A DNA stretch of 64,000 bases from Escherichia coli (lineage in GTDB: Bacteria; Pseudomonadota; Gammaproteobacteria; Enterobacterales; Enterobacteriaceae), in NCBI RefSeq assembly GCF_044324875.1, contig NZ_CP172185.1; one strand, given 5' to 3'. The position numbers and the translations under genes were made by a program. Positions 808-60,789 of this stretch are shown here, piece by piece (position 1 is the first letter of the stretch; each line of letters starts with the position of its first letter). The notes below the pieces were generated by a model that ran no database searches, was not told where the DNA came from, and saw only the letters and a program-made list of their open reading frames with translations.

Positions 808-829
808 ATCCACCTCGCTTCAATTAAGG

Positions 830-1102: not shown

Positions 1103-1180
1103 TATATTCACCATTTTAAGTTGAAGAAGTCCCATCACGCAACGGCGCAATGTTGTGAAAAGACTGAATTTATAATGTAA

Positions 1181-4005: not shown

Positions 4006-4022
4006 CTGCACAACAGCGCTGT

Positions 4023-4619: not shown

Positions 4620-4848
4620 GGAAAGCGCACATCGACACCGGCACGGTACGATACAAACACCAGTGACTGGCGGGACGAAGGGAATGACGAATCAGTCAGG
4701 AAATGATGACAAACAGTTGGCTGGCCAGAGGGTGCCAGCAGAAAGATGAGCGGGAGTTGTCAGCGCCAGCACCAGGGACAGGGCTGATTTCCACAATACC
4801 AGCGCCGGCATTTCGCACATTGCCAGCGTACTGGCATTACAACACGTT

Positions 4849-5085
4849 TCATGCTGCTGCTCCTCGTGATTCCTCAATTCGCTGCTGCATCCACTGCTCC
4901 ACTTCACTTTTGTACCAGCGGCTGCTGCGCCCCAGTTTGATGGGTTTAGGGAAATGGCCTTCACTGATCAGCTTGTAAAACCATTTGTCGGTCATACCAG
5001 TGAAGCTGGTGATGTAGTTCATGTCGATCAGGGGATCGTCGGCACGCAGCAATACGCTGTCGTGACCTGTCATTGAGGTCAACAT
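4849..5085 (-). CDS. alpA: AlpA-family phage/island transcriptional regulator
   Basis: 78 aa; MNYITSFTGMTDKWFYKLISEGHFPKPIKLGRSSRWYKSEVEQWM is the AlpA HTH signature. Confidence 0.8.
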   Translation of the reverse strand: MLTSMTGHDSVLLRADDPLIDMNYITSFTGMTDKWFYKLISEGHFPKPIKLGRSSRWYKSEVEQWMQQRIEESRGAAA

Positions 5086-5153
5086 GGTCAGAATGTCCTC
5101 TGTGAGATTTATGAATGTTGGGCAAATGCGGGTGAATCTGCTGAGCTGAGCTT

Positions 5154-5756
5154 TCAGAGCTGGCCTGCTACGGGATACCAGGGATTACCGGCGAGGTAAC
5201 GGGCTTCCGGATCGCGCACACCACGACGATCGCGGGCGAAATCACTGAACGCCCATATCAGCTCTTTGAGTCTCTCTTCGCAGTCCGGTGAACAACTGTC
5301 CAGCACCACATCCCGGGTTATCTGTTTCTGGTACGGTGCTGCTTCACCCGGTGACGCGAAGCCCAGTACGTTGCTCCAGGCATCCAGAATCAACCGGTCC
5401 AGCTCAGGGCCGTCGAAATATTCCTGTCTGACGCACAGCACCACGTGGTATTCCGGTTTTTCAGGATGACGGGTCAGGAGCCAGCAGAGGTCGCGTCCGG
5501 GGGTTGCATTCATCAGCGCACTGACGGTTTCGATAAAGGCCATACCGAACCAGGTTTTTCTGTCGCTGAAGATGTTGCCATGTTCCCCCGGCAGACGAAG
5601 CAGGATCCGCCGTATCCTGGAGCCGGACTGCTCGCGCAACACACGGTTGAGAACGCCGATGATTTTGTTCTGATAAGATGGCCAGAAGGGCGCCATGCTA
5701 TAGTCGAAATAAGGGATAGCATTCATAAGATATGTTCCGTTATACGCAGCCCACAA
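5154..5756 (-). CDS. Inovirus Gp2-family (YfjI/YagK-like) protein, paralog 2
   Basis: 200 aa; island backbone position immediately after alpA. Confidence 0.55.
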   Translation of the reverse strand: MWAAYNGTYLMNAIPYFDYSMAPFWPSYQNKIIGVLNRVLREQSGSRIRRILLRLPGEHGNIFSDRKTWFGMAFIETVSALMNATPGRDLCWLLTRHPEKPEYHVVLCVRQEYFDGPELDRLILDAWSNVLGFASPGEAAPYQKQITRDVVLDSCSPDCEERLKELIWAFSDFARDRRGVRDPEARYLAGNPWYPVAGQL

Positions 5757-6082
5757 CGCGTCCTGCCCGTGGATGCGCTGACGTGTTATGGCTTGCGTAT
5801 GGGGTTGATGGAATAAGTGAAAAACCGCGGCAGAACGGGAAGATCAGGTAACCGACAAGGGACAGAACACCGGATGCAGGTTCAGAATGAATGATCTCCG
5901 TTGACTTCGGTTCACATCATTAAGCAGGACAGTAAGGTTTTACCGACGGAGTGTTTCCAGGAGCGAAAGCAGAGAAAAATACCGTTGCATGACTTCAGGA
6001 CGACTTTTTCAGAAAACGAGCTAAGGGCGTCAGCCAACGTCCTGTAGCATAAGCTCAGGCACCGGATGTCGTTTTACAGGGC

Positions 6083-6814
6083 TCACCTGCCATCCAGCAG
6101 ACGCCCCGGCCCACGACTGCAACCATAATTACGTTGCCCGGAACCGTCATGCTGCTTCGTCTCATATTTCACGAGATAACTGGCTCTGTTCCGGGCTTTC
6201 TGCAGCGCTTCCACATCACCACGCTTGATCCAGAGAACAGCGGCTTCACCCGGCTTTTTTTCTGAAGCCTTCCTGGTATCAGAACATCCACCCGACAAAG
6301 GCGTGTCATCGGAAGAAGGGCGAGCATCAGACGATGCTGGTTTACGGGAAGGCGTCCACCTGGAAAAATGGACCAGGCCATCGCCTTGCCAGGCCTCAAG
6401 ATGCAGGGCGCTGCACCATGCCTCCAGGATCATCGTCGCCAGCGAAGATGGTTCGCTGAAATCCCCTGGCGAGCACCAGGTATCTTTGTTGAGCAGCAAT
6501 ATCACGTGATAATGTTTCCTGCCTTTTTCCTTGCCAAACTCCCGACACCAGAAATAACGCAGAGTGGTTGCACGCACACGCTTGTTGGCACGTCGTTTTT
6601 TCCGCTGGTAAGCCTGGATTTTGGCTTTCAGGGATTCGAAAAAACGAGAAATCACCGCTGAATCCGGATCGGGATCCATGATGGTGACAGGCATATACTC
6701 AGGGAAACGTAAATCCACCCGGATTAACGAGACGGCACGGTGCTGCGACAGGGCACTGTCGAGAAGGCTGTCAAAACGGGATAACCAGTAAGCATTGTGT
6801 ATTGGTTGATTCAT
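6083..6814 (-). CDS. Inovirus Gp2-family (YfjJ/YagK-like) protein, paralog 3
   Basis: 243 aa; LIRVDLRFPEY ... HYHVILLLNKD pattern. Confidence 0.6.
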   Translation of the reverse strand: MNQPIHNAYWLSRFDSLLDSALSQHRAVSLIRVDLRFPEYMPVTIMDPDPDSAVISRFFESLKAKIQAYQRKKRRANKRVRATTLRYFWCREFGKEKGRKHYHVILLLNKDTWCSPGDFSEPSSLATMILEAWCSALHLEAWQGDGLVHFSRWTPSRKPASSDARPSSDDTPLSGGCSDTRKASEKKPGEAAVLWIKRGDVEALQKARNRASYLVKYETKQHDGSGQRNYGCSRGPGRLLDGR

Positions 6815-6849
6815 GATGAGAGATCTCCGTTGATTTGGATTGACTTCAC

Positions 6850-8390
6850 ATCATTAATCACCGCGGTAAAACTTTACGGCATCATGTCATTAAGCAATGC
6901 TACAACTCTCTGATTAAGAGTGATTGAAACGGAACAAACCATCCCGGAACGAAAAGATAATCCTGCACACAGCAGCAAAACACGCAACAACAGCATGAAT
7001 GGATTTAAAAACGACATGGACGACGAGAAAAGCCTGAAGGGAAAAGGATCCACAGAACATTCGAACAAAACACCAGAAACGCAACCAGAACGCTTCCTGG
7101 CAATGCAAATCAACAACAACGCCAAAACCTACAGCTTAATCACACAACTCAATCACGAATGCGAATGACACGTTTAAAACCTGTTTACAGATAACGCCGT
7201 AACACGATCATCCCCATCACCATCAGAATCGATTTTCTCATCCCGAAAATGTTACGTTTCACTACGCACCATAAAAACGATTAACCATCGATAACGTAAA
7301 TCTCATCTGAATCAAAAAACCAAAACCAATCATCACACTTTCGCAATGCAAGAAGAAAAACCACATCATGACGAAAACAATGACCTTACATGAAAAAGCA
7401 AAACGTCAGGAATCGTTAATGCCTCAATCTGATTGTTATCAAAACATCCAGAAAGTCGTTTAACAGAATCGTCGTAAGCACATCGAAAAGAACGTCAGAT
7501 CACCTCAGGAAAGTTCGGGTTGATTTAGCGTAAAGATACTTTTCTCAGCTTAACGTCGAAACACAAACCAAAAACCACAAACAACCAAAGCTCAGGAAAG
7601 GTTAAACGTCACATCAGTAAAATCGAATAGCAGATTGATTGCTTAAACAGGAAAGATTGTTTTACAGCAGCATTAAACTGATTTAGTTAACGTAAAATCA
7701 GAACTGACAGGTTTACTAACTTGGATGTGTATCAGTTCAAAAATGTGTACAGCAATGCGTAATGAAACACATTTAAAGGAGATTAATGGGAAAAGTGTGT
7801 AAATGCGTAAACATGCACTAATGAATCACTGAAGGAATACATACAAAACGACTTAATGAAAACATAAAAGGACCTAATGGAAAAGGTGTATATAATACCA
7901 TATCCGACATTCTCAACATCTTAAGACATCCATGCAGACTGAATGTTGGTTTCAGTTTTTCACGGTAAGCATGAATCTTTTCTGTTCAAAAGCAGAGCAG
8001 ATTTACTCTGGAATTATTTTTCTTACTCCGTATTCTGTACAGCAAAAACTTGTGCTAACTTTACAGCAAACCATCATAATCAGCGTCTGTAGTCCCATCG
8101 CTTTACCCCATGAAAGTGAATCCATATGATGTGAGAGAGATAAGTCATCGTATCCGGTAAACACTGCTTACTATAACATAAGATCATTCAGTCAGTTTTA
8201 TCTCTGAACTGACGATTATGGCATGCTCATTTATATGGCTCACAGAGGAGTGTTATTATCCGTAAGCTTTAATCATCAAATCACATGACCATACCAAACT
8301 GGCGCTATATCAGCTCATTTGACGCTCATTCCCTTTAGATTTCTTTATGTGTTTTTTGTCGATAATTAAAATGTAATATAAATTTAATAT
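6850..8390. other. About 1.5 kb ORF-poor, strand-skewed (A+C-rich top strand) intergenic region with recurrent short motifs
   Basis: No ORF of 60 aa or more on either strand between about 7170 and 7930; recurring AACGT(C/A)A..ATC, TCAGGAAAG and TAATGRA motifs. Confidence 0.6.
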
Positions 8391-8397
8391 TTTCACA

Positions 8398-9621
8398 TCA
8401 TAAACACCATTTAAAACCATCATCCTGAACATCATACAACAATATATTTTTACTAAAGCATGAATTGTATATTTCTATTAATTCAGGAAAATTATCAGGA
8501 TTCACCTTTAAATTCAACTGAATGTTACACTTAATTTCACTCAGCAGTTCTTCATGCGTGGATTTTATTATCCCTTTATCATAATCTATAAATACACACA
8601 TGTTTTTCATGAATTCAAACCCTTTTCCTGTATACAGTTTGATGAATGCCACAAGAGCAAACATTTCAAGATGCAGCCATAATGCCACGTGAGTTTTTCG
8701 CAAAGTATAAAAAATTGAATTCGCCACTTTTTTACTTATTGCTCTTTTGTACTGTGAGTGCGCCAGATTCAGTAGTGGCAATTCTCTCTCGATAAATGAA
8801 AGTGAAAAAGGCGGGTAAATTGATGTCGGAAATATTTCAGGTCTTATGATATTTTCGATTTCCACCATAAATCTATCCATAGAACGAAAATCATTTTCTT
8901 TTTTTATTCTGGTATAGAGACCGCCTTTATTCCTTACTGCGACTTTTTTTCGTGCTATCCCCCCCAACATTTCCTCTAATTGTTTATTTATCTTCGTATC
9001 ATTAAATACAACCATTCTTCTTATCATCCTGGGAAGGATGATAATATCAGAGCTTGAATCACTTGAACGGCAATTATTATTGATCCATGCAACTTCAAGT
9101 TGAAGTATCGGAACATTAAATTCTCTGGGGTTAATAACTCTCTGATATTGTTTTTTGTATGCGTTTTCATTAAGATATTCTCTGCTGTAGAGAAACTTAT
9201 AGCAATATAATCTGACAATATCCTTTATGTAAGATTTAAATGAGTCACCTGTAACAGATATATTTTTTCTTCTCAGTAACTCCTGTGTATTGAGCCATTC
9301 CCGTGACCGGAGTACTCCATTATGAAGACTTTTTCTTACTTGCTTTGAATTGCGCAATTGATGTAATATTTTTGCGTCCTCAACAATTCTCTTTCCCGTT
9401 TGATTTCTTGCAGCATCTATTACTCTGTCAAATATCTCCCGGTCCAGACTTTTGTCATATTTACTGATTATACGACAAATATTCCTGACCCGACGGTTCT
9501 CTTTATTTCGTTTCCATAACTGATAATGATCATCACATAACCTCAGGGCATTTGCCTCATCAAATTCTGAAACAGGATTGCTGCATTTTTTATTCCGACA
9601 GATACCTTTGTTTTTAGCCAT
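8398..9621 (-). CDS. Hypothetical protein, 407 aa, low-GC orphan
   Basis: Long ATG-initiated ORF with purine-rich SD; Lys/Arg/Asn-rich; N-terminal Cys-x4-Cys ... Cys-x2-His; no family recognised. Confidence 0.6.
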   Translation of the reverse strand: MAKNKGICRNKKCSNPVSEFDEANALRLCDDHYQLWKRNKENRRVRNICRIISKYDKSLDREIFDRVIDAARNQTGKRIVEDAKILHQLRNSKQVRKSLHNGVLRSREWLNTQELLRRKNISVTGDSFKSYIKDIVRLYCYKFLYSREYLNENAYKKQYQRVINPREFNVPILQLEVAWINNNCRSSDSSSDIIILPRMIRRMVVFNDTKINKQLEEMLGGIARKKVAVRNKGGLYTRIKKENDFRSMDRFMVEIENIIRPEIFPTSIYPPFSLSFIERELPLLNLAHSQYKRAISKKVANSIFYTLRKTHVALWLHLEMFALVAFIKLYTGKGFEFMKNMCVFIDYDKGIIKSTHEELLSEIKCNIQLNLKVNPDNFPELIEIYNSCFSKNILLYDVQDDGFKWCL

Positions 9622-9721
9622 ACTCTTCTTCCCGTCAATGGAAAAATTTTCACGTCCATATTACCTGACTGAGAGGCCGGATTAATGTGATCCGGTTCAG
9701 TGAAATCAACAGGATAACGGT

Positions 9722-10606
9722 ATGTCATTCAGCCATTCTTCCCTCTCCGCACACGTAAAGTCACATCTGACCTTTCTTCCTGAAGAAATTCGCCAGAAAA
9801 TCCTTGAACATCTTCGCAGCGTCATTCAGTACGAACCCGTTATTGGCATTATGGGTAAATCCGGTGCCGGAAAAAGCAGCCTGTGCAATGCCATTTTTCA
9901 GTCCCGTGTCTGCGCCACGCATCCGCTGAACGGCTGCACCCGTCAGGCTCATCGTCTTACCTTTCAGCCCGGTGAACGAAGAATGACGCTGGTCGATCTG
10001 CCCGGCACTGGCGAAACACCACAGCATGATCAGGAATACCGGGCACTTTACAGTCAGTTACTGCCCGAACTGGATCTGATTATCTGGATCCTGCGGGCTG
10101 ATGAACGTGCGTATGCTGCCGACATCGCCATGCATCAGTTTTTACTGAATGAAGGTGCCGATCCCTCGCGTTTTCTGTTTGTTCTCAGCCATGCCGATCG
10201 CATCCACCCGGCTGAAGAATGGAACAACCAGAGCAGCACGCCATCCCGTCAGCAGGAACTCTCACTGGCGACGGTGACAGCCCGGGTGGCAACCCTGTTC
10301 CCTTCATCATTTCCGGTACTCCCCATAGCCGCTCCTGCCGGCTGGAATCTTCCGGCATTTGTGTCTCTGATGATCCACGCCCTGCCACCACAGGCAACCA
10401 GCGCGGTTTATTCGCATATCCGGAATGAAAAGCGCACTGCGCAGGATCAGCAACACGCACAGCAGGCTTTTGGTGACGCCATCGGCCAGAGTTTTGACGC
10501 TGCCATTGCCCGGTTCAGCTTTCCGGCCTGGATGCTGCAGCTTCTGCGCAAAGCCCGTGATCGCATTATCCGCCTGCTGATCACACTGTGGGATCGCCTG
10601 TTCTGA
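9722..10606 (+). CDS. YeeP/YfjP-family GTPase (50S ribosome-binding GTPase-like)
   Basis: 294 aa; P-loop GIMGKSGAGKSS and DLPGTGE switch motif. Confidence 0.85.
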   Translation: MSFSHSSLSAHVKSHLTFLPEEIRQKILEHLRSVIQYEPVIGIMGKSGAGKSSLCNAIFQSRVCATHPLNGCTRQAHRLTFQPGERRMTLVDLPGTGETPQHDQEYRALYSQLLPELDLIIWILRADERAYAADIAMHQFLLNEGADPSRFLFVLSHADRIHPAEEWNNQSSTPSRQQELSLATVTARVATLFPSSFPVLPIAAPAGWNLPAFVSLMIHALPPQATSAVYSHIRNEKRTAQDQQHAQQAFGDAIGQSFDAAIARFSFPAWMLQLLRKARDRIIRLLITLWDRLF

Positions 10607-10791
10607 ATGTCCCCGCTTTTTGACCGGCCCCGGCGATAACCAGGAAACGCATTTCCGGTTGCGTCACCACAATGCTGAAGGGCTTCGGTAAACCCTCATT
10701 CATTTCATCCATCAGGCCGCGTCTTCTCCGTGAGACGCGGCTTTTTCATTGATTACGTCATTCAGTCTTAACCACTGATAAGGAGCAAAGT

Positions 10792-11610
10792 ATGCGATTA
10801 GCCAGTCGTTTTGGTTATGCGAACCAGATACGCCGTGACCGTCCGCTGACCCGTGAAGAGCTGATGCACCATGTGCCCGGGATTTTCGGGGAAGATAAAC
10901 ACACCTCCCGGAGCCGGAACTATACATACATCCCCACCATCACCGTGCTGGAAAGCCTGCAGCGGGAAGGCTTTCAGCCATTCTTCGCCTGCCAGACCCG
11001 CGTACGTGACCCGGGTCGCCGGGGGTATACCAAACACATGCTGCGTCTGCGCCGTGACGGGGAGATAAACGGACAACATGTCCCTGAAATTATTCTGCTC
11101 AACTCTCATGACGGTACCTCCAGCTACCAGATGCTGCCGGGTTACTTCAGGTTCGTCTGCCAGAACGGATGCGTCTGCGGTCAGTCTCGGGGGGAAGTGC
11201 GTGTTCCGCACCGGGGAAATGTGGTGGACAGAGTCATTGAAGGGGCTTACGAGGTGGTGGGCGTGTTTGACCGGATAGAGGAGAAGCGTGATGCCATGCA
11301 GTCGCTGGTCCTGCCGCCACCGGCACGCCAGGCGCTGGCACAGGCGGCACTGACTTACCGTTATGGTGACGAACATCAGCCCGTCACCACCGCCGACATT
11401 CTGACACCACGACGCCGGGAGGATTACGGTAAGGACCTGTGGAGTGCTTATCAGACCATCCAGGAGAATATGCTGAAAGGCGGGATTTCCGGTCGCAGTG
11501 CAAAAGGAAAACGTATCCATACCCGGGCCATTCACAGCATTGATACCGATATAAAACTCAACCGCGCATTGTGGGTGATGGCAGAAACGCTGCTGGAGAG
11601 CATGCGCTGA
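10792..11610 (+). CDS. DUF932-family protein (YfjQ/YafZ-like)
   Basis: 272 aa; position after the GTPase gene as in CP4-type islands. Confidence 0.7.
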   Translation: MRLASRFGYANQIRRDRPLTREELMHHVPGIFGEDKHTSRSRNYTYIPTITVLESLQREGFQPFFACQTRVRDPGRRGYTKHMLRLRRDGEINGQHVPEIILLNSHDGTSSYQMLPGYFRFVCQNGCVCGQSRGEVRVPHRGNVVDRVIEGAYEVVGVFDRIEEKRDAMQSLVLPPPARQALAQAALTYRYGDEHQPVTTADILTPRRREDYGKDLWSAYQTIQENMLKGGISGRSAKGKRIHTRAIHSIDTDIKLNRALWVMAETLLESMR

Positions 11611-11691
11611 TGCCGTTTCCCTGAGTGAGGGAATCATTCAGCTTTCGTTCCTGAAAAACACACATTTATTTGTTATTTAAGGCGTTATCTC

Positions 11692-12171
11692 ATGAAAACC
11701 GTTTCTCAGAATACCCCCACAATTTATTCAGCTACAACACCAGAGAATAATCCGCCTCAGTTGGTTGCCAGCCTCGTCCCTGATGAACAGCGCATCAGCT
11801 TCTGGCCGCAGCATTTTGGCCTCATTCCACAGTGGGTGACCCTGGAGCCCCGTGTCTTCGGCTGGATGGACCGTCTGTGCGAAGACTACTGCGGTGGTAT
11901 CTGGAATCTGTACACCCTGAACAACGGCGGGGCATTTATGGCCCCCGAACCGGATGATGATGATGACGAAACATGGGTACTGTTCAATGCCATGAACGGT
12001 AACCGCGCTGAAATGAGCCCGGAAGCCGCCGGCATTGCCGCCTGTCTGATGACGTACAGTCATCACGCCTGCCGTACGGAGTGTTATGCCATGACGGTTC
12101 ATTATTACCGTCTGCGGGATTACGCCCTGCAGCATCCGGAATGCAGCGCCATTATGCGCATCATTGACTGA
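11692..12171 (+). CDS. Antirestriction protein, KlcA/ArdB family (YfjX/YafX-like)
   Basis: 159 aa; acidic DDDDDE stretch, conserved island order. Confidence 0.75.
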   Translation: MKTVSQNTPTIYSATTPENNPPQLVASLVPDEQRISFWPQHFGLIPQWVTLEPRVFGWMDRLCEDYCGGIWNLYTLNNGGAFMAPEPDDDDDETWVLFNAMNGNRAEMSPEAAGIAACLMTYSHHACRTECYAMTVHYYRLRDYALQHPECSAIMRIID

Positions 12172-12186
12172 AAGGGGGCCGGAACA

Positions 12187-12663
12187 ATGCAACAGATTTC
12201 CTTTCTGCCCGGAGAAATGACAACCAGAGAGCGCAGCCTCATTCAGCGGGCCCTGAAAGCCCTGGACCGCCATCTTCATGAACCCGGCGTGGCCTTCACC
12301 TCCACGCATGCGGCACGGGAATGGCTGATTCTGAACATGGCGGGACTGGAGCGTGAAGAATTCCGGGTGCTGTATCTGAATAACCAGAATCAGCTGATTG
12401 CCGGTGAAACCCTCTTCACCGGCACCATCAACCGCACGGAAGTCCATCCCCGGGAAGTGATTAAACGCGCCCTGTACCACAATGCCGCTGCCGTGGTGCT
12501 GGCGCACAATCACCCGTCCGGTGAAGTCACACCCAGCAAGGCAGACCGCCTTATCACGGAACGTCTGGTACAGGCGCTGGCCCTGGTGGATATCCGGGTG
12601 CCGGACCATCTGATAGTCGGTGGCAGCCAGGTTTTCTCCTTTGCCGAACATGGTCTGCTTTAA
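12187..12663 (+). CDS. RadC-like JAB-domain protein (YeeS/YfjY-like)
   Basis: 158 aa; JAMM-like HNHPSGEVTPSKAD motif. Confidence 0.85.
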   Translation: MQQISFLPGEMTTRERSLIQRALKALDRHLHEPGVAFTSTHAAREWLILNMAGLEREEFRVLYLNNQNQLIAGETLFTGTINRTEVHPREVIKRALYHNAAAVVLAHNHPSGEVTPSKADRLITERLVQALALVDIRVPDHLIVGGSQVFSFAEHGLL

Positions 12664-12725
12664 CCCGTCACAACCACATCACACCTGTTTTCACTTTTAT
12701 CTTCTGTCTTCAGAGGTATCCCATT

Positions 12726-12947
12726 ATGAAAATCATCACCCGTGGTGAAGCCATGCGTATTCACCAACAGCATCCTGCATCCCGTCTTTTTCCGTTCTGT
12801 ACCGGCAAATACCGCTGGCACGGCAGCACTGAAACGTATACCGGTCGTGAAGTGCAGGATATTCCCGGTGTGCTGGCTGTGTTTGCAGAACGTCGTAAGG
12901 ACAGTTTTGGCCCGTATGTCCGGCTGATGAGCGTCACCCTGAACTGA
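12726..12947 (+). CDS. YeeT-family (DUF987) small protein
   Basis: 73 aa, MKIITRGEAMRIHQQHP...; position before the antitoxin gene. Confidence 0.75.
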   Translation: MKIITRGEAMRIHQQHPASRLFPFCTGKYRWHGSTETYTGREVQDIPGVLAVFAERRKDSFGPYVRLMSVTLN

Positions 12948-12961
12948 GTCAGGGCATTCTG

Positions 12962-13594
12962 ATGAGCAGAATTATCACCATCACAGTGTATACGCTGGAT
13001 GAACTTTCCTGCCCGGCACGGGAAAAAGCCCGCGACGGGTACCGTCAGCATCATGCTGACAGCAACTGGTATGAAAACGTGTATGAGGACGTCAGGGAGG
13101 TCTGTGGCATTTTCGGAATTGACCTCTGCCAGCGTGTTATCCGTCTCAGCAACGGCAGGTTTATGGAAGAGCCGTGCATCTGGTTCAGCGGATTCTGCAG
13201 CCAGGGACGGAGCCTGTTTTGAAGGACGCTGGCACTGGCAGTCAGCAACAACCAGGAGAGTCCGGGAGTATGCCCCGCAGAACCGTGAGCTTCATCGTAT
13301 CGCGGATGCCCTGCAGGCGGTGCAGAAACGTAACTTCTGGCAACTGCAGGCTGAAATCCACCACCGGGGACGTTACTGCCATCCGTTATCACTGTTACCC
13401 GGAACAGTCCGACTGGTCAGGCTATGACAGCCGATGCGGAAGCCGCTGTCAGCGAAGCCCTGCGCGACCTGGCCTTCTGGCTGTACCGTCAACTGGAAAA
13501 CGAGTACGACCAGATGACCTCAGACGCCGCTGTGGATGAGGCCATTCTCATCAATGCATACATCTTCACCGAAACCGGTCAGCGCACCGGCTGA
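12962..13594 (+). pseudogene. Apparently disrupted gene: protein-like segments in three reading-frame pieces (12962-13222, about 13200-13427, 13424-13594)
   Basis: All three segments translate to plausible protein sequence but are separated by frame changes; the last piece (57 aa) is below the ORF-track threshold. Confidence 0.35.
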
Positions 13595-13643
13595 CCTGTC
13601 ATCGTTAAACCATTCTTAACCACTTTTCAGAGAGGATTTTATC

Positions 13644-14012
13644 GTGTCAGACACACTCTCCGGGATAACTCATCCCGACGACAATCACGACCGCCCCTGG
13701 TGGGGGCTTCCCTGCACAGTGAGGCCCTGTTTTGGCGCCCGTCTGGTGCAGGAGGGTAACCGCCTGCATTACCTTGCCGACCGCGCCGGCATCAGAGGCC
13801 GGTTCAGCGATGCGGATGCATACCATCTGGACCAGGCCTTTCCGCTGCTGATGAAACAACTGGAACTCATGCTCACCAGCGGTGAACTGAATCCCCGCCA
13901 TCAGCATACCGTGACACTGTATGCGAAGGGGCTGACCTGCGAAGCCGACACCCTCGGCAGTTGTGGTTACGTTTATCTGGCTGTTTATCCGACGCCCGAA
14001 ACGAAAAAGTAA
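13644..14012 (+). CDS. Type IV antitoxin, CbeA/YeeU/YfjZ family
   Basis: 122 aa, near-identical to recalled YeeU (MSDTL.G.T.PDDNHDRPWWGLPCTV...TPETKK). Confidence 0.9.
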   Translation: MSDTLSGITHPDDNHDRPWWGLPCTVRPCFGARLVQEGNRLHYLADRAGIRGRFSDADAYHLDQAFPLLMKQLELMLTSGELNPRHQHTVTLYAKGLTCEADTLGSCGYVYLAVYPTPETKK

Positions 14013-33580: not shown

Positions 33581-33718
33581 CAACGTGCGCTTTGTTGACG
33601 CCGGATGCGGCGTGAATTCCTTATCCGGTCTACAAAATTTGCAAATCCAAAGCATTACATTAAGACATGGCCTGATAAACATATCGCATCAGGCCATTTT
33701 CGTTAGCTATTGTCCACG

Positions 33719-35140
33719 TCAGGCTTTCACATCACTCACTGCACCGACCGGAATATCAGCATGAACAGGCTCGGGCGGTACTTTGCGATATTTATCCAGC
33801 AGATGGATCTGGATCCTGCGCAGCGTGTCACCATTGAGGCGATAGAAACGGAAGTAGAGAATCAGCGTTACCATGAAAAACAGAGTCGGTAGAGCAATCA
33901 TAATAAACTGCATACCTAATAGGGCTTGCGTAGACTGTTCAACATTCGGTACATAGCCAATCATCCCTAACACAACCGCAATGAAAAAAGCCGCAAAGGC
34001 TGAACCGCCCTTCACCACCATAGTCTGCACGGAGTAAGCGATGCTTTCACAGCGTACGTGCAGTTTATATTCACCGTAATCAACGGTATCTGCCACCATG
34101 ATGACCTGTAATACCCAGAAAAGCGCCGTTCCCACATTCAGCAAGATACCCGCAATCACAATGAGGACGACGTTGTGATAGCTCATTAATGCCATTAACA
34201 GGAGAACACCACAGCTTAACACCGGAAGAATAGATGCTCCGGCCCATAAAATGCGTCGGGATAATGATTTAACTAAGCGTGGGAAGAATACTAACGTCAC
34301 CAGGTTAGCAGCTCCCGCATACGACAGATAATAGGGGAACAAATCCGCATCACCGATAACATATGAGAAATAATAGATAGCAAAGCCGGTAATAATATTG
34401 CTGGCTACATTATAAGCAAGAGCCATACCCAAGAGGCATGAAAGCTGATCGTTTTTATAAATAAGCGCAACGATGGCTTTAAGTGTCAGATGGCTTCCTT
34501 CAGCAGACGGTTGATTGTCTGACGAAAAGACTTCATGCACATTGCGCAGAGTGATGATGGTTGAAACAATAAAAAAGGCGATCAGTACCAGAGTGAACAT
34601 CTGAAAGCCAAATCCCCGATCGCCACCGCCGACATAATTAACAAATGGTAGCGTCACACCTGCCGTAACAAAGCCCGCCAGACTGGCAAAAAAACGCGGA
34701 TAAGGAACCAGTTGTTCGCGCTCACGTTTATCGAGCGTTATGGTTGGAACCAGCGACCAGAAGGGAATATCCATAATGGTGTAAGTCATGCCCCAGAGGA
34801 TGTAGGTCACGCAAACAAAGACAATCTGAGTAGTACCTTCAAACAGATGCGCACTAAAGAGGAGAAATAAGATTACAGAGTTTGCCAACGTACCGATCAG
34901 GATCCAGGGTTTGAACTGACCCCATCGCGATCGCGTAGCATTTACAATCCATCCCATAATCGGATCGTTAATAGCATCCCAGATCCTCGCCACCAGAAAC
35001 AAAGTACCGACCAAACCCACAGACAGCCCGACGACATCGGTGTAGTAATACATGAGGTACATATACACAATGCCGATCGCAAAATCCTTCCCGAACGCTC
35101 CAAATCCATAACTGAGTTTTGTAGTCATTGAAATGCTCAT
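33719..35140 (-). CDS. melB: Melibiose:cation symporter
   Basis: Start trimmed to [14 protein letters not shown]; 473 aa. Confidence 0.95.
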
Positions 35141-45236: not shown

Positions 45237-46328
45237 ATGCGTTTTCTGCGCCGACCAATATCGCTGCGCCAACGGCTGATATTGACCATTGGGGCCATTT
45301 TGTTGGTGTTTGAGCTGATCAGCGTCTTCTGGCTATGGCATGAAAGTACCGAGCAGATTCAGCTGTTTGAGCAGGCGCTACGCGACAATCGCAACAACGA
45401 TCGCCACATCATGCGTGAGATCCGCGAGGCGGTCGCCAGCCTGATCGTCCCCGGCGTCTTTATGGTCAGCCTGACGCTATTTATCTGCTATCAGGCGGTA
45501 CGCCGCATCACCCGGCCGCTGGCGGAGCTGCAAAAAGAGCTGGAAGCGCGCACCGCCGACAACTTAACGCCTATTGCCATTCACAGCGCCACCCTCGAAA
45601 TCGAAGCGGTGGTTTCGGCGTTGAACGATCTGGTCAGTCGCCTGACCAGCACGCTGGATAACGAAAGGTTGTTTACCGCTGACGTCGCGCACGAACTGCG
45701 AACGCCACTGGCGGGGGTGCGTTTGCATCTGGAACTGCTGGCGAAAACGCATCACATTGATGTAGCACCGTTAGTGGCTCGACTTGATCAGATGATGGAG
45801 AGTGTCTCCCAGCTGCTGCAACTGGCGCGTGCCGGACAGTCATTTTCTTCCGGGAATTATCAACATGTAAAACTGCTGGAAGATGTCATTCTCCCCTCGT
45901 ATGACGAACTCAGTACCATGCTCGACCAGCGACAGCAAACCCTGCTATTGCCAGAGAGCGCCGCCGACATCACCGTTCAGGGTGATGCAACCCTGCTGCG
46001 GATGTTATTGCGAAACCTGGTAGAAAACGCCCATCGTTACAGCCCGCAAGGCAGCAACATTATGATTAAGCTGCAAGAAGATGGCGGAGCGGTCATGGCC
46101 GTTGAAGATGAAGGACCGGGTATTGATGAGAGTAAATGCGGGGAGTTGAGTAAAGCGTTTGTACGTATGGACAGCCGTTATGGCGGGATTGGTCTGGGGT
46201 TAAGTATTGTCAGCCGCATTACACAGTTGCATCACGGGCAGTTTTTCCTGCAAAACCGGCAAGAGACTTCCGGCACGCGGGCCTGGGTACGGCTGAAGAA
46301 AGATCAGTACGTGGCAAACCAGATATAA
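45237..46328 (+). CDS. basS: Sensor kinase BasS (PmrB)
   Basis: Track start is TTG at 45228; first ATG at 45237 gives 363 aa. Confidence 0.9.
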   Translation: MRFLRRPISLRQRLILTIGAILLVFELISVFWLWHESTEQIQLFEQALRDNRNNDRHIMREIREAVASLIVPGVFMVSLTLFICYQAVRRITRPLAELQKELEARTADNLTPIAIHSATLEIEAVVSALNDLVSRLTSTLDNERLFTADVAHELRTPLAGVRLHLELLAKTHHIDVAPLVARLDQMMESVSQLLQLARAGQSFSSGNYQHVKLLEDVILPSYDELSTMLDQRQQTLLLPESAADITVQGDATLLRMLLRNLVENAHRYSPQGSNIMIKLQEDGGAVMAVEDEGPGIDESKCGELSKAFVRMDSRYGGIGLGLSIVSRITQLHHGQFFLQNRQETSGTRAWVRLKKDQYVANQI

Positions 46329-46393
46329 AGAAAGCTGCTGACCACCAGCACGCTGAACACGGTAGTTAAACTTTCATAAACACGGTTTTTCAT
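46304..46393 (-). CDS. pmrR: PmrR, 29-aa membrane peptide; not in ORF track
   Basis: Manual translation MKNRVYESLTTVFSVLVVSSFLYIWFATY; 3' end overlaps the basS 3' end convergently. Confidence 0.8.
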   Translation of the reverse strand: MKNRVYESLTTVFSVLVVSSFLYIWFATY

Positions 46394-46504
46394 TGCACTC
46401 TCCTCCGTTAACCTGGAGGAGAGTATGCGCGTCAGAGATTAAGTGAACCTTAAGACTTCAATTGGCCTGATAAGACAGCGTCACATCAGGCCATCCGTTT
46501 CAGC

Positions 46505-52111: not shown

Positions 52112-52114
52112 TTG

Positions 52115-52210
52115 TATTGTGATCGGTAAGCCGGATAAGGCGCTCGCGCCGCATCCGGCAACGATGCCGACAGCCTGATGCGACGCTGACCGCGTCTTAT
52201 CAGGCTTCCC
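52115..52210. repeat. REP/BIME-type extragenic palindromic element
   Basis: GCCGGATAAGGCGC...GCATCCGGCA and GCCTGATGCGACGCTG...CTTATCAGGC motifs. Confidence 0.6.
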
Positions 52211-52270
52211 TCTCATCTGTATAAATTTCGAACTACACTTAACTGGCTTCTCTTAACTGAGGTCACCATC

Positions 52271-52714
52271 ATGCCGTTAAGTCCCTACCTCTCTTTTGCC
52301 GGTAACTGTGCCGACGCAATTGCTTATTATCAACGTACGTTGGGCGCTGAACTGCTCTATAAAATCAGCTTCGGCGAAATGCCAAAATCAGCGCAGGACA
52401 GCGCCGAGAACTGCCCTTCCGGAATGCAATTTCCCGATACCGCCATCGCCCACGCCAATGTGCGCATTGCCGGAAGCGATATCATGATGAGCGATGCTAT
52501 ACCGTCAGGAAAAGCCAGCTACTCCGGCTTTACGCTGGTGCTCGATTCGCAACAGGTCGAAGAAGGAAAACGCTGGTTTGACAACCTTGCCGCTAACGGA
52601 AAAATCGAAATGGCCTGGCAGGAAACTTTCTGGGCGCATGGCTTCGGCAAAGTCACCGATAAATTTGGCGTACCGTGGATGATTAATGTCGTCAAACAAC
52701 AACCAACGCAATAA
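52271..52714 (+). CDS. phnB: PhnB
   Basis: 147 aa. Confidence 0.9.
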   Translation: MPLSPYLSFAGNCADAIAYYQRTLGAELLYKISFGEMPKSAQDSAENCPSGMQFPDTAIAHANVRIAGSDIMMSDAIPSGKASYSGFTLVLDSQQVEEGKRWFDNLAANGKIEMAWQETFWAHGFGKVTDKFGVPWMINVVKQQPTQ

Positions 52715-52769
52715 TCCGCCGGGAGGCCCGCCCTCCCGCACTGTCATCGAATTCCCGTTAACTCTTCAT

Positions 52770-52815
52770 CTGTTAGTCACTTTTAATTAACCAAATCGTC
52801 ACAATAATCCGCCAC
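52770..52815 (+). promoter_or_regulatory. Candidate Pho box upstream of phnC
   Basis: CTGTTAGTCACTTTTAATTAACCAAATCGTCACAATAATC shows 7+4 nt periodicity typical of PhoB sites. Confidence 0.45.
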
Positions 52816-52846
52816 GATGGAGCCACTTTTTTAGGGAGGCTGCATC

Positions 52847-53635
52847 ATGCAAACGATTATCCGTGTCGAGAAGCTCGCCAAAACCTTCAATCAGCATCAG
52901 GCGCTGCACGCGGTTGATCTGAACATTCATCACGGTGAAATGGTGGCTCTGCTTGGGCCGTCGGGTTCCGGCAAATCCACCCTTTTACGTCACTTAAGCG
53001 GTTTGATTACCGGCGATAAATCTGCCGGTAGCCATATTGAGCTGCTGGGCCGCACAGTCCAGCGCGAAGGCCGCCTGGCCCGCGATATCCGCAAAAGCCG
53101 CGCCAACACCGGCTACATCTTCCAACAATTCAACCTGGTGAATCGCCTGAGCGTACTGGAGAACGTGCTGATTGGCGCGCTCGGCAGCACGCCATTCTGG
53201 CGCACCTGTTTTAGCTACTTCACTCGCGAGCAGAAACAGCGCGCGTTACAGGCGCTGACCCGCGTTGGCATGGTGCACTTTGCCCATCAGCGCGTTTCCA
53301 CCCTCTCCGGCGGACAGCAGCAGCGTGTGGCGATTGCCCGTGCGCTGATGCAGCAGGCGAAGGTGATTCTGGCCGATGAACCCATCGCCTCGCTGGACCC
53401 GGAATCGGCGCGCATCGTGATGGACACCCTGCGCGACATTAACCAGAACGACGGCATTACCGTGGTCGTCACGCTGCATCAGGTGGATTACGCCCTGCGC
53501 TACTGCGAACGCATCGTCGCCCTGCGCCAGGGGCACGTCTTCTACGACGGCAGCAGCCAACAGTTTGATAACGAACGTTTTGACCATCTCTACCGCAGCA
53601 TCAACCGCGTCGAAGAAAACGCGAAAGCTGCCTGA
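52847..53635 (+). CDS. phnC: Phosphonate ABC transporter ATPase
   Basis: 262 aa, Walker [10 protein letters not shown]. Confidence 0.95.
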
Positions 53636-53659
53636 CATCCCCATCATTGAGGAAAACGA

Positions 53660-54676
53660 ATGAACGCTAAGATAATTGCCTCGCTGGCCTTCACCAGCAT
53701 GTTCAGCCTCAGCACCCTGTTAAGCCCGGCGCACGCCGAAGAGCAGGAAAAGGCGCTGAATTTCGGCATTATTTCAACGGAATCACAGCAAAACCTGAAA
53801 CCGCAATGGACGCCGTTCTTACAGGATATGGAGAAGAAGCTGGGCGTAAAGGTCAACGCCTTCTTTGCCCCGGACTACGCGGGCATTATCCAGGGGATGC
53901 GCTTCAATAAAGTGGATATCGCCTGGTACGGCAATCTGTCGGCGATGGAAGCGGTGGATCGCGCCAACGGTCAGGTCTTCGCCCAGACGGTCGCGGCGGA
54001 TGGATCGCCGGGTTACTGGAGCGTGTTGATCGTCAACAAAGACAGTCCGATCAACAACCTGAACGATCTGCTGGCGAAGCGTAAAGATCTCACCTTCGGC
54101 AATGGCGATCCTAACTCCACCTCTGGCTTCCTCGTCCCCGACTACTACGTCTTCGCCAAAAACAATATCTCCGCCAGCGACTTCAAGCGCACCGTCAACG
54201 CCGGGCATGAAACCAACGCGCTGGCCGTCGCCAACAAGCAGGTGGATGTGGCGACCAACAACACCGAAAACCTCGACAAGCTGAAAACCTCCGCACCGGA
54301 GAAGCTCAAAGAACTGAAGGTGATCTGGAAATCGCCGCTGATCCCAGGCGATCCGATCGTCTGGCGCAAAAATCTGTCCGAAACCACCAAAGACAAGATC
54401 TACGACTTCTTTATGAACTACGGCAAGACGCCGGAAGAGAAAGCGGTGCTGGAGCGCCTGGGATGGGCCCCGTTCCGCGCCTCCAGCGACCTGCAACTGG
54501 TGCCGATTCGCCAACTCGCACTGTTTAAAGAGATGCAGGGCGTAAAAGGTAATAAAGGGCTGAATGAGCAGGACAAGCTGGCAAAAACCAGCGCCATTCA
54601 GGCGCAACTGGATGACCTGGACCGCCTGAACAACGCGTTAAGCGCGATGAGTTCGGTGAGTAAAGCGGTGCAGTAA
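53660..54676 (+). CDS. phnD: Phosphonate periplasmic binding protein
   Basis: 338 aa with signal peptide. Confidence 0.95.
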   Translation: MNAKIIASLAFTSMFSLSTLLSPAHAEEQEKALNFGIISTESQQNLKPQWTPFLQDMEKKLGVKVNAFFAPDYAGIIQGMRFNKVDIAWYGNLSAMEAVDRANGQVFAQTVAADGSPGYWSVLIVNKDSPINNLNDLLAKRKDLTFGNGDPNSTSGFLVPDYYVFAKNNISASDFKRTVNAGHETNALAVANKQVDVATNNTENLDKLKTSAPEKLKELKVIWKSPLIPGDPIVWRKNLSETTKDKIYDFFMNYGKTPEEKAVLERLGWAPFRASSDLQLVPIRQLALFKEMQGVKGNKGLNEQDKLAKTSAIQAQLDDLDRLNNALSAMSSVSKAVQ

Positions 54677-54679
54677 ATC

Positions 54680-54780
54680 GTAAGTCGGATAAGACGCCAC
54701 GGCGTCGCATCCGACAATGTGCAGACGTTGATGCCGGATGCGGTGCAAGCACCTTATCCGGCCTACAGACCGGAGCCAAA
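54680..54780. repeat. REP element between phnD and phnE
   Basis: GTCGGATAAGACGCC...GCGTCGCATCCGACA and GCCGGATGCGGTGCAAGCACCTTATCCGGCCTAC. Confidence 0.6.
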
Positions 54781-54781
54781 C

Positions 54782-55561
54782 ATGCAAACCATCACCATCG
54801 CCCCACCCAAGCGCAGCTGGTTCTCGCTTCTGAGCTGGGCCGTTGTTCTCGCCGTGCTGGTCGTCTCGTGGCAGGGCGCGGAAATGGCCCCGCTCACGCT
54901 GATTAAAGACGGCGGCAACATGGCAACCTTCGCCGCCGACTTCTTCCCGCCCGATTTCAGCCAGTGGCAGGATTACCTCACCGAAATGGCCGTCACGCTG
55001 CAAATCGCCGTCTGGGGCACCGCGCTGGCGGTGGTTCTCTCCATCCCCTTTGGCCTGATGAGCGCCGAAAACCTGGTGCCGTGGTGGGTTTACCAGCCCG
55101 TTCGCCGCCTGATGGACGCCTGCCGCGCCATTAACGAGATGGTCTTCGCCATGCTGTTCGTGGTCGCCGTCGGTCTCGGTCCGTTCGCTGGCGTACTGGC
55201 GCTGTTTATCCACACCACCGGCGTACTCTCCAAACTGCTTTCCGAAGCGGTAGAAGCAATTGAACCCGGCCCGGTGGAAGGTATTCGCGCCACCGGTGCC
55301 AACAAGCTCGAAGAGATCCTCTACGGCGTGCTGCCGCAGGTGATGCCGCTGCTGATCTCCTACTCCCTCTATCGCTTCGAATCCAACGTCCGTTCGGCCA
55401 CCGTTGTTGGCATGGTCGGCGCGGGCGGGATCGGCGTCACCCTGTGGGAAGCGATTCGCGGTTTCCAGTTCCAGCAAACCTGCGCCCTGATGGTGCTGAT
55501 TATCGTCACGGTCAGCCTGCTGGATTTCCTCTCTCAACGGTTGCGTAAGCACTTTATCTGA
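54782..55561 (+). CDS. phnE: Phosphonate ABC transporter permease, intact
   Basis: Start trimmed to [11 protein letters not shown]; uninterrupted 259 aa. Confidence 0.9.
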
Positions 55562-55581
55562 TAAGCGAGGCATTGATATCT

Positions 55582-56307
55582 ATGCACTTGTCTACACATC
55601 CGACCAGCTACCCAACACGCTATCAGGAGATAGCCGCAAAACTTGAGCAGGAGCTTCGTCAACACTACCGCTGCGGCGACTATCTTCCCGCCGAGCAGCA
55701 ACTGGCGGCGCGCTTTGAGGTGAACCGCCACACCCTGCGCCGCGCCATCGACCAACTGGTGGAAAAAGGCTGGGTACAGCGCCGTCAGGGCGTCGGCGTG
55801 CTGGTACTGATGCGCCCGTTCGATTACCCGCTCAACGCCCAGGCGCGTTTTAGCCAGAACCTGCTGGATCAGGGCAGCCATCCCACCAGCGAAAAACTGC
55901 TGTCGGTGCTGCGCCCGGCCTCCGGTCACGTCGCTGACGCGCTGGGGATAACCGAGGGCGAGAACGTTATCCACCTGCGCACCCTGCGTCGGGTCAACGG
56001 CGTCGCGCTCTGTTTAATCGACCACTACTTTGCGGATCTCACCCTCTGGCCGACGCTGCAACGCTTCGACAGCGGCTCGCTGCACGATTTTCTGCGCGAG
56101 CAAACGGGGATTGCGCTGCGCCGCAGCCAGACGCGGATCAGCGCCCGCCGCGCCCAGGCCAAAGAGTGCCAGCGTCTTGAAATCCCGAATATGTCGCCGC
56201 TGCTGTGCGTGCGCACCCTTAACCACCGTGACGGTGAAAGCAGCCCGGCGGAGTACTCCGTCAGCCTGACGCGCGCCGACATGATTGAATTCACTATGGA
56301 GCACTGA
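55582..56307 (+). CDS. phnF: GntR-family regulator PhnF
   Basis: Start trimmed from TTG to MHLSTHPTSYP; 241 aa. Confidence 0.9.
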   Translation: MHLSTHPTSYPTRYQEIAAKLEQELRQHYRCGDYLPAEQQLAARFEVNRHTLRRAIDQLVEKGWVQRRQGVGVLVLMRPFDYPLNAQARFSQNLLDQGSHPTSEKLLSVLRPASGHVADALGITEGENVIHLRTLRRVNGVALCLIDHYFADLTLWPTLQRFDSGSLHDFLREQTGIALRRSQTRISARRAQAKECQRLEIPNMSPLLCVRTLNHRDGESSPAEYSVSLTRADMIEFTMEH

Positions 56308-59243: not shown

Positions 59244-59998
59244 ATCAACCGTTACTTTCGGTCAATAACCTGACCCACCTTTACGCGCCGGGCAAAGGCT
59301 TTAGCGATGTTTCTTTTGATTTATGGCCGGGGGAAGTGCTGGGCATCGTCGGGGAATCCGGCTCCGGGAAGACCACGCTGCTGAAATCAATCTCCGCGCG
59401 CCTGACGCCGCAGCAGGGGGAGATTCGCTATGAAAACCGCTCCCTCTATGGCATGAGCGAAGCCGACCGCCGCCGTTTACTGCGCACCGAATGGGGCGTG
59501 GTACATCAGCATCCGCTCGACGGCCTGCGCCGCCAGGTGTCGGCAGGCGGCAATATCGGCGAGCGGCTGATGGCGACCGGGGCGCGTCATTACGGCGACA
59601 TCCGCGCCACCGCGCAGAAGTGGCTGGAAGAGGTGGAGATTCCCGCCAACCGGATCGACGACCTGCCGACCACCTTTTCCGGCGGCATGCAGCAACGTTT
59701 GCAGATTGCCCGCAACCTGGTGACGCATCCGAAGCTGGTGTTTATGGACGAACCAACCGGCGGGCTGGATGTGTCGGTGCAGGCGCGCCTGCTCGACCTG
59801 CTGCGCGGCCTGGTGGTGGAGCTGAACCTGGCGGTGGTGATTGTCACCCACGATTTAGGCGTCGCCCGCCTGCTGGCGGACCGTTTGCTGGTGATGAAGC
59901 AGGGGCAAGTAGTGGAGAGTGGGTTAACCGACCGCGTGCTCGACGACCCTCACCATCCATATACCCAGCTGCTGGTGTCATCGGTTTTGCAGAATTGA
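59240..59998 (+). CDS. phnK: ABC-ATPase-like PhnK
   Basis: Start trimmed to [11 protein letters not shown]; 252 aa. Confidence 0.9.
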
Positions 59999-59999
59999 G

Positions 60000-60100
60000 C
60001 CAGTGCCGGATACGGCGTAAACGCCTTATCCGGCCGACAAATGCGCTCCCCGTAGGTCGGATAAGACGCGTCAGCGTCGCATCCGACACCCGAACCACGA
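60000..60100. repeat. REP element between phnK and phnL
   Basis: GCCGGATACGGCGTAAACGCCTTATCCGGCC and GTCGGATAAGACGCGTCAGCGTCGCATCCGACA. Confidence 0.6.
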
Positions 60101-60108
60101 GGCGAAAA

Positions 60109-60789
60109 ATGATTAACGTACAAAACGTCAGTAAAACCTTCATCCTGCACCAGCAAAACGGCGTGCGCCTGCCCGTCTTACAACGTGCCTCGCTCACCGT
60201 CAACGCAGGCGAATGCGTGGTGCTTCACGGCCACTCCGGCAGCGGAAAATCAACCCTGCTGCGCTCGCTGTACGCCAACTATCTGCCCGATGAAGGTCAA
60301 ATCCAGATCAAACACGGTGATGAGTGGGTAGACCTGATCACCGCGCCAGCCCGCAAAGTGGTGGAGATCCGCAAAACCACCATCGGCTGGGTGAGCCAGT
60401 TTCTGCGCGTCATCCCGCGTATTTCGGCACTGGAAGTGGTGATGCAGCCTCTGCTCGATACCGGCGTACCGCGTGAAGCCTGCGCCGCTAAAGCCGCCCG
60501 ATTACTGACGCGCCTGAACGTGCCTGAACGCCTGTGGCACCTGGCACCATCGACCTTCTCCGGCGGCGAACAGCAGCGCGTCAACATCGCCCGTGGCTTT
60601 ATCGTCGACTATCCGATTCTGCTGCTGGATGAACCCACCGCCTCGCTGGACGCTAAAAACAGCGCCGCGGTGGTGGAACTCATTCGCGAAGCCAAAGCCC
60701 GTGGCGCGGCCATCGTCGGTATCTTCCATGACGAAGCCGTACGCAATGACGTCGCCGACCGCCTGCACCCGATGGGAGCCTCTTCATGA
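60109..60789 (+). CDS. phnL: ABC-ATPase-like PhnL
   Basis: Real start [11 protein letters not shown] inside the longer 59491..60789 ORF; 226 aa. Confidence 0.9.

Follow-up and report, generated by a model that had tools for sequence, protein, structure and literature searches.

An intact phnE allele and its conserved upstream REP pair in the phosphonate operon of Escherichia coli

A close described counterpart of the locus studied here is the phn operon of Escherichia coli K-12, in which phnE is frameshifted at an 8-bp repeat; this frameshift and its repeat go back in the literature to 1991 and 2004 (as cited in PMC6469041). An 8-bp deletion, 5'-GCTGGCGT, at positions 407-414 of the phnE ORF reactivates the K-12 gene (PMC6469041), K-12 phnE+ revertants were reported to take up both phosphonate and orthophosphate (PMC6469041; PMC4759930), and BL21 is phnE+ (PMC6469041). 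In the importer specified by phnCDE, PhnD binds the phosphonate in the periplasm, PhnE forms the channel and PhnC hydrolyses ATP. A second described system that is relevant for this locus is the REP325 element, which was found to stabilise the upstream transcript and to attenuate transcription into the downstream gene, partly via Rho (bioRxiv 10.64898/2026.03.23.713779). The same study gives a median log ratio of 0.96 versus -0.09, with wide scatter, and describes the effects of REP elements as context-dependent and widely varying (bioRxiv 10.64898/2026.03.23.713779).

We analysed a stretch of E. coli DNA of 64,000 nucleotides (hereafter the window), focusing on phnE and on the spacer that separates it from phnD (Table 1). 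With a probability of about 0.9, this interval represents an ordinary functional E. coli phnE allele with a conserved REP pair upstream; an intact phnE combined with such a REP pair is wild-type and already known. The first-pass annotation had described an intact 259-aa permease that, unlike the frameshifted K-12 allele, should be part of a functional phosphonate transporter, and that description is supported. In the ORF listing, the frame that opens at ATG 54782 stays open up to the stop at 55561. The 259-aa product scored well above the cut-off of the PhnE equivalog model TIGR01097 (311.5 bits versus 216.7, model positions 8-251 of 252), and residues 88-258 matched the binding-protein-dependent permease domain PF00528 (91.8 bits versus 26.4). 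The prediction of a functional transporter leans on the finding that PhnE equals the protein of a repaired K-12 gene and that phnC, phnD and phnF-P are of full length (both discussed below).

Table 1. Features of the phn locus (window coordinates)
Feature	Position	Strand	Description
yjdN-phnC spacer	52715..52846	+	phn operon control region
phnC	52847..53635	+	ATPase subunit, 262 aa; NF007438 606 bits vs cut-off 365; K-12 length
phnD	53660..54676	+	periplasmic phosphonate-binding protein, 338 aa; TAA 54674-54676; TIGR03431 376 bits vs 261
phnD-phnE spacer	54677-54781		105 nt; two imperfect palindromes
REP unit 1	54680..54718	-	CATTGTCGGATGCGACGCCGTGGCGTCTTATCCGACTTAC read on minus strand; arms 54684-54698/54701-54715
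REP pair (BIME)	54683..54763	-	Rfam naRNA4 RF02564 (REP325 unit)
linker between REP heads	54719..54730		12 nt; holds GTG 54719; aligns to naRNA4 linker columns
REP unit 2	54731..54767	+	TGCCGGATGCGGTGCAAGCACCTTATCCGGCCTACAG; arms 54733-54746/54749-54762
Shine-Dalgarno GGAG	54772..54775	+	six bases before ATG 54782; predicted unpaired
phnE CDS	54782..55561	+	259 aa; membrane subunit, PhnCDE phosphonate/phosphate ABC importer
8-bp repeat tract, two copies	55187..55202	+	GCTGGCGT ACTGGCGC; alignment to K-12
codons 155-186 of phnE	55244..55339	+	32 residues; read as cytoplasmic EAA loop

The allele is found in other strains as well. A query of 1,051 bases around phnE matched 5,395 of the 5,426 complete E. 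coli genomes searched, three of them at 100%. In strain TUM1886, which is base-identical to the window over 54142-55805 and differs at 80 positions over 7 kb, the NCBI pipeline annotated phnE as a gene of 780 nt for a protein of 259 aa (WP_001193500.1). The same protein was annotated in seven examined genomes, whose DNA around the gene falls into no fewer than five different haplotypes. The opposite strand carries an antisense ORF (54638-55573, 311 aa) that is longer than phnE itself; it had no Pfam match and was set aside as a shadow ORF of a GC-rich gene.

The first-pass annotation had proposed an alignment with K-12 phnE around the 8-bp repeat as a check of its claims. In the alignment of the window with K-12 MG1655 (98% mean column identity), the sole gap is an indel of one 8-bp copy, and this is the only difference in length between the two genes. 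MG1655 has three copies, in the context GTTC GCTGGCGT GCTGGCGT GCTGGCGC TGTTT, versus two in the window (55187-55202), in the context GTTC GCTGGCGT ACTGGCGC TGTTT; in either strain, position 406 of the 259-aa frame is where the tract starts. The extra K-12 copy at position 406 agrees with the published location of the reactivating deletion at 407-414 (PMC6469041). For an off state of the K-12 type at least three tandem copies are needed, with a number of extra copies that is not a multiple of three, and the window has two. When one copy is removed, K-12 phnE becomes 780 nt long and differs from the window at 26 nt, all of them synonymous. The absence of any amino acid difference from the repaired gene implies that the window encodes exactly the protein of the K-12 phnE+ revertants, and the purely synonymous nature of the 26 differences is a signature of strong purifying selection.

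The consequences of the copy number for the protein can be outlined as follows. Two copies keep the frame, and the third copy in K-12 shifts it after residue 140; the K-12 product consists of 140 native residues, behind which translation continues out of frame for 49 more until a stop is reached (189 aa). Residues 155-186, which we take to be the EAA loop by which the permease of an ABC importer contacts the ATPase, and all that follows are lost in K-12, as they lie downstream of the frameshift. The transporter would thus be switched off by loss of the ATPase-contact loop and of the C-terminal membrane helices. Replication slippage on the 8-bp repeat would toggle between the on and off states, and the allele in the window is in the on state, with the added peculiarity that a synonymous G-to-A change breaks up its repeat.

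The alternative to this reading that survives best, which we nevertheless consider unlikely, is that the gene is intact but specifies a longer product with REP-derived codons in the protein, i.e. 276 aa from ATG 54731 or 280 aa from GTG 54719. Both codons are in frame and no stop separates them from 54782. The mechanically derived ORF between phnD and phnF (54719..55561, + strand) makes use of the GTG and amounts to 280 aa, and the K-12 RefSeq CDS starts 54 nt after phnD, at the equivalent of ATG 54731, with which REP unit 2 opens, and amounts to 276 aa. Several observations speak against the longer forms. No Shine-Dalgarno-like sequence precedes GTG 54719 or ATG 54731, the latter lies at the foot of the hairpin formed by REP unit 2 and the former within a small predicted hairpin. 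The shorter form is favoured by a GGAG located six bases upstream of ATG 54782; this GGAG and the ATG are both unpaired in the centroid structure of the spacer fold. Position 8 of the TIGR01097 model aligns to PhnE residue 16, which puts the N-terminus of the family close to residue 9 when counted from ATG 54782 and makes an extension needless. In each of four further genera (Dryocola, Leclercia, Enterobacillus and Stutzerimonas), the orthologue has the same aligned start as the 259-aa PhnE. GGAG-type ribosome-binding sites were found in all three loci examined (Dryocola, Enterobacillus and Stutzerimonas), and in two of them, Dryocola and Stutzerimonas, GGAG or ACGGAG occupies the corresponding place ahead of phnE, in the latter as GGAG followed by ATG. 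Of the three loci, only that of Dryocola has an in-frame stop upstream of the aligned ATG; it lies 15 codons away, and the intervening stretch is free of start codons. Finally, the NCBI pipeline gives 259 aa in every examined non-K-12 genome in which phnE is annotated as intact.

Taken together, these comparisons lend good, if indirect, support to ATG 54782 as the predicted start of phnE, and thereby to a product of 259 aa. The remark in the first-pass annotation that the 280-aa ORF contains REP-derived codons was correct, as the 21 extra codons (54719-54781) cross REP unit 2 (54731-54767). The same remark also fits the 276-aa K-12 model, which begins inside the REP. In annotation, the 259-aa start is preferable to that of the K-12 reference model, which falls within a REP palindrome.

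Less probable still is that the frame is open and the phosphonate system is yet non-functional or unexpressed, owing to missense changes in phnC, phnD or phnG-P or to a Pho-regulatory defect located beyond the window. PhnC, PhnD and most C-P lyase subunits do differ from K-12 at 1-8 residues each, and phoB and phoR are absent from the window. Against this, the 13 other phn genes (phnC, phnD and phnF-phnP) are all present, co-directional, of K-12 length and free of internal stops, and their products scored far above the curated cut-offs; they were identified by curated models, with PhnI and PhnJ recognised via Pfam. The nucleotide differences in the phn genes are mostly synonymous, a pattern of purifying selection seen for instance in phnD, which equals its K-12 counterpart in length and differs from it at 34 nt and 4 aa. 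The region upstream of phnC is also that of K-12 save one base (52700-52870, spanning the yjdN-phnC spacer). This spacer presumably holds the PhoB-dependent promoter that was reportedly described in Makino 1991. The phnE gene adjoins phnC and phnD at the head of the C-P lyase operon, the context in which a PhnE is found.

An intact and functional importer is thus the reading that we retain. The import of phosphonate and phosphate by the strain is predicted, and the functional call is as strong as a sequence allows. Likewise, a working phosphonate pathway is predicted, and the window holds nothing that contradicts it. The strain from which the window derives would import and use phosphonates and take up phosphate via PhnCDE, as most E. 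coli do.

The last alternative is that the true genome or population is frameshifted and that the two copies were produced artificially, by the assembly or the consensus, at a repeat prone to slippage. The points in its favour are the known hypermutability of the 8-bp tract and the mixed state of K-12 cultures, as reportedly described in Iqbal 2004. It can be dismissed as extremely improbable, since 408 complete genomes, each assembled independently, contain precisely this 39-nt allele with its interrupting A, and a three-copy version of it was found in none of the 5,426 genomes of the collection.

These counts come from a census of the repeat states with short megablast queries over the 5,426 complete E. 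coli genomes, in which no 28-base word fits the wrong allele. Apart from the window-type allele (GCTGGCGT ACTGGCGC), the canonical two-copy allele GCTGGCGT GCTGGCGC was found in 2,463 genomes and canonical two-copy alleles with a variant flank in 1,201; as many as about 360 genomes may, owing to a recombinant flank, have been counted in both of these classes. The O157:H7/O55:H7-type allele GCTGGTGT GCTGGCGC was found in 309 genomes and the K-12-type three-copy allele in 998-1,012. The five allele classes total 5,393 of the 5,395 phnE-bearing genomes. Because of the possible double count, the share of two-copy alleles is best derived by subtraction of the three-copy class together with 60 hits taken at even spacing from a search with a 201-nt query, of which 48 were two-copy, 11 three-copy and one of another type. 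By this approach the two-copy, in-frame state amounts to about 81% and the K-12-type three-copy state to about 18.6% of the complete E. coli genomes, the former in line with the statement that phnE is intact in by far most E. coli (PMC6469041).

The frameshift in phnE is not peculiar to K-12: it is present in about 1,000 of the 5,426 complete genomes, many of which are from wild isolates. In a sample of 40 matches to the three-copy allele, some 12 were evident laboratory K-12 derivatives and the rest had been isolated from humans, pigs, poultry and a giant panda or from sewage and water. Seven copies of the 8-bp unit were present in a bovine isolate whose phnE was annotated as frameshifted. 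The off allele was reportedly considered unique to K-12 by Iqbal et al. in 2004. The census shows that the 'cryptic' K-12 allele is no laboratory oddity and that the on/off repeat varies in natural populations.

Another characteristic of the tract in the window is its interruption. The G-to-A change at 55195 is synonymous (GTG to GTA, both Val) and affects the first base of the second copy of a repeat that is otherwise perfect. With the second copy opening with A, GCTGGCG does not recur at the 8-bp period, and the pairing available upon slippage is 6 nt (CTGGCG) versus 7 nt (GCTGGCG) in a perfect repeat. One could imagine that the change dampens slippage and makes the on state steadier in this lineage (408 of the 5,426 genomes) than it would be with a perfect repeat; we regard this idea as doubtful, and any damping effect is probably small. 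Expanded alleles were not found on the A-interrupted, window-type background among the 5,426 genomes, versus about 1,000 on the perfect-repeat background, a comparison that is confounded by the K-12 flank that the expanded alleles share and by the fact that the interruption costs the pairing just one nucleotide (6 nt left of 7). As 1,011 of the 1,014 three-copy records have at least 99% identity to the exact K-12 flank, and nearly all thus share one flanking haplotype, the three-copy alleles may be largely inherited and not recurrent.

Other interrupting changes were observed in O157:H7 (the allele found in 309 genomes) and in at least one further strain, PapRG-06-5 (GCTGGCGT GTTGGCGC). Together, the several interrupting changes might mean that phase variation in the uptake of phosphonate has been selected against repeatedly. 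The synonymous interruptions in several lineages form a natural test set to relate the perfection of the repeat to the rate of switching.

In the spacer between phnD and phnE, the first-pass annotation had noticed a single REP element. Its presence was established by the core pattern, by the Rfam match and by dispersed copies; it is in fact an inverted pair (BIME) and not a single element. REP unit 1 begins 3 nt past the phnD stop, with its stem starting 7 nt past that stop, and we take it to be of Z-type in the Y/Z nomenclature; REP unit 2 would then be of Y-type. The two units are inverted, with their heads facing each other across the linker, as expected for a BIME. Their arms, of 15 and 14 nt, are 87% and 86% complementary, and the outer ends of the units are complementary to one another. 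Both units contain the conserved GATGCG...CTTATC core. The pattern CGGATGCG-N4-16-CTTATCCG for this core occurs five times in the window versus zero times expected by chance, with the other sites lying in the yjdM-yjdN spacer (a pair), between phnK and phnL (a single copy) and near 33602 (one site); the pattern of REP unit 1 also matches a sister copy at 60056-60087.

The match to the Rfam model RF02564 on the minus strand covered the full length of the model (1-77) with 64.6 bits (gathering threshold 59.5, E 3.9e-9); on the + strand the pair scored 49.8 bits, below the threshold, and the true REP325 site at 52129-52206 scored 85.5 bits. In the predicted RNA fold the spacer forms two REP hairpins, including that of unit 1 (-45.4 kcal/mol, z = -3.4). 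A sensitive BLAST search with the spacer yielded matches at 12 or more places per genome (median at least 40) in 5,425 of the 5,426 E. coli genomes. The position of the pair is conserved: the 1,051-nt query, which includes the spacer, was covered for at least 80% in 5,388 genomes, and the spacer differs from that of K-12 at three bases. Both units lie outside the coding sequence only when the 259-aa start is adopted, and the K-12 annotation makes unit 2 coding. No REP features are listed for the phn region in the annotation of NC_000913.3, and a literature search gave nothing usable on a REP between phnD and phnE. Terminator-like matches in the region 52600-55700 were not above chance level (7 versus 4.2 ± 2.4 expected), with one of them on the 8-bp tract, and were rejected. 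A stem-loop was found 3' of phnD in all three other genera examined (Dryocola, Enterobacillus and Stutzerimonas), by which a hairpin at the phnD-phnE junction looks like a general property, for which E. coli uses a REP pair.

By analogy, the REP pair most likely acts like other intercistronic REPs. From other REPs (bioRxiv 10.64898/2026.03.23.713779), the pair may be predicted to influence mRNA stability or readthrough or to be bound by gyrase, IHF, HU or the RAYT transposase. On the polycistronic mRNA it would guard the phnD message from decay starting at the 3' end and would partly attenuate transcription into phnE. The phnCD message would then exceed that of phnE, with more binding protein than channel as the outcome, and this predicted difference agrees with the stoichiometry that an ABC importer should have. 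A mechanism via REP-induced ribosome stalling and tmRNA was not relied on, as a literature search on stalling near stops gave nothing usable.

Beyond the correct annotation of phnE, the finding matters little. At the level of the protein, a sequence search of the PDB found no structure of PhnE, and the nearest relative with a solved structure is MetI, the permease of the methionine ABC importer (PDB 3DHW, 6CVL), which aligns to PhnE residues 125-254 (E 6e-6). MetI and PhnE belong to one family of binding-protein-dependent importer permeases; their sequence relationship is distant and they differ in substrate and partner proteins.

At the level of the spacer, the phnD-phnE pair resembles REP325/naRNA4 in the yjdM-yjdN spacer in consisting of two inverted hairpins with a short linker. 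In contrast to the REP325 cluster it is a single such unit, and its best Rfam match is antisense to the phn operon. It is also similar to intercistronic REPs such as that of malE-malF, which are situated between co-directional genes of one operon, right after the upstream stop. In malE-malF the REP follows the gene of a periplasmic binding protein, as it does after phnD.

At the level of the gene, the phnE pseudogene of K-12 MG1655 (b4583, in the 'cryptic' phn operon) shares with the window the locus, the flanking genes and the REP-pair spacer; unlike the window it has the third 8-bp copy and the resulting frameshift, and its CDS is annotated from the ATG inside REP unit 2. The phnE+ genes of E. 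coli B/BL21 and of the K-12 revertants have two 8-bp copies and a 259-aa product, as in the window, and the operon order phnCDEFGHIJKLMNOP is common to all of them. From the repaired K-12 backbone the window differs in its tract (GCTGGCGT ACTGGCGC versus the canonical GCTGGCGT GCTGGCGC) and by the 26 synonymous differences described above.

The off state of phnE is common in nature and not peculiar to K-12, the K-12-type three-copy frameshift allele being found in about 1,000 of the 5,426 complete E. coli genomes, with non-laboratory strains making up about 70% of 40 sampled matches to this allele. One bovine isolate (NZ_AP042682.1) carried seven 8-bp copies at position 406 of the phnE ORF. 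At the equivalent of window 55187-55202, the repeat was found to be disrupted by different single-base interruptions in two further lineages, reading GCTGGTGT GCTGGCGC in 309 O157:H7/O55:H7 genomes (e.g. O157:H7 strain H6437) and GCTGGCGT GTTGGCGC in the baboon isolate PapRG-06-5. The phnD-phnE-phnF segment gave no match in 31 of the 5,426 complete genomes, and five of its matches in the E. coli genome collection were on plasmid-labelled records.

We also found signs of a possible second site of rearrangement within phnE, at a pair of 7-nt direct repeats, CCACCGG (see table). A public E. coli PhnE protein (P0049; 126 contigs) has an in-frame deletion of 25 residues, and two others (P0002 and P0003) have the reciprocal duplication of 25 residues; both changes correspond exactly to the segment between the repeats. 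Several further in-frame deletions, of 18-45 residues, were observed in the same region among the public E. coli PhnE proteins. These changes delete or double a putative ATPase-contact loop. They suggest that phnE can also be inactivated by slippage or recombination at a second site.

Features in the window, with positions in nucleotides
Feature	Position	Strand	Remark
STnc630 (enterobacterial sRNA)	46297-46462	-	full-length Rfam match, 181 bits
yjdM-yjdN spacer	52112-52270		REP325/naRNA4 locus
Rfam match within the yjdM-yjdN spacer	52129-52206
CCACCGG direct repeats (7 nt)	55215 and 55290		75 nt apart
single REP unit	60056-60087	-	phnK-phnL gap, 110 nt

The phnE pseudogene in the K-12 MG1655 record (1944-2782 in the extracted locus, L001) begins at the ATG equivalent to window 54731; a REP palindrome opens with these three bases, which lie 17 codons upstream of the start assigned by the NCBI pipeline in other strains. 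The gene model of the K-12 reference is probably over-extended. A GC-rich stem-loop was found in the phnD-phnE spacer of the distant genera Dryocola, Enterobacillus and Stutzerimonas as well, built in Dryocola from REP-like palindromes of its own, and phnCDE operons seem to have conserved a hairpin at this junction. The single REP unit in the phnK-phnL gap and REP unit 1, found between phnD and phnE, agree at 29 of 32 bases. A spurious 432-aa ORF in the ORF list (59491-60789) results from the presence of the phnK-phnL REP unit.

Elsewhere in the window, the STnc630 match overlaps a site annotated in strain TUM1886 as the small protein gene pmrR. In TUM1886, melB is split by an insertion of IS1414; comparison of window positions ~33590-34910 with 33586-34899 of TUM1886 showed that this 1.3-kb segment is absent from the window, in which melB therefore appears uninterrupted. 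An island occupies the left end of the window (~1-14000); it contains remnants of IS3/IS1 as well as a toxin-antitoxin pair, YeeU/CbtA, and is collinear with TUM1886 in part only.

The K-12 locus of REP325, the model REP element, has been described as a cluster of six repeats (PMC4550694), in a yjdM-yjdN spacer of 657 nt, whereas the locus in the window holds one REP pair only in a spacer of 159 nt, indicating that REP325 is strongly contracted in this strain.
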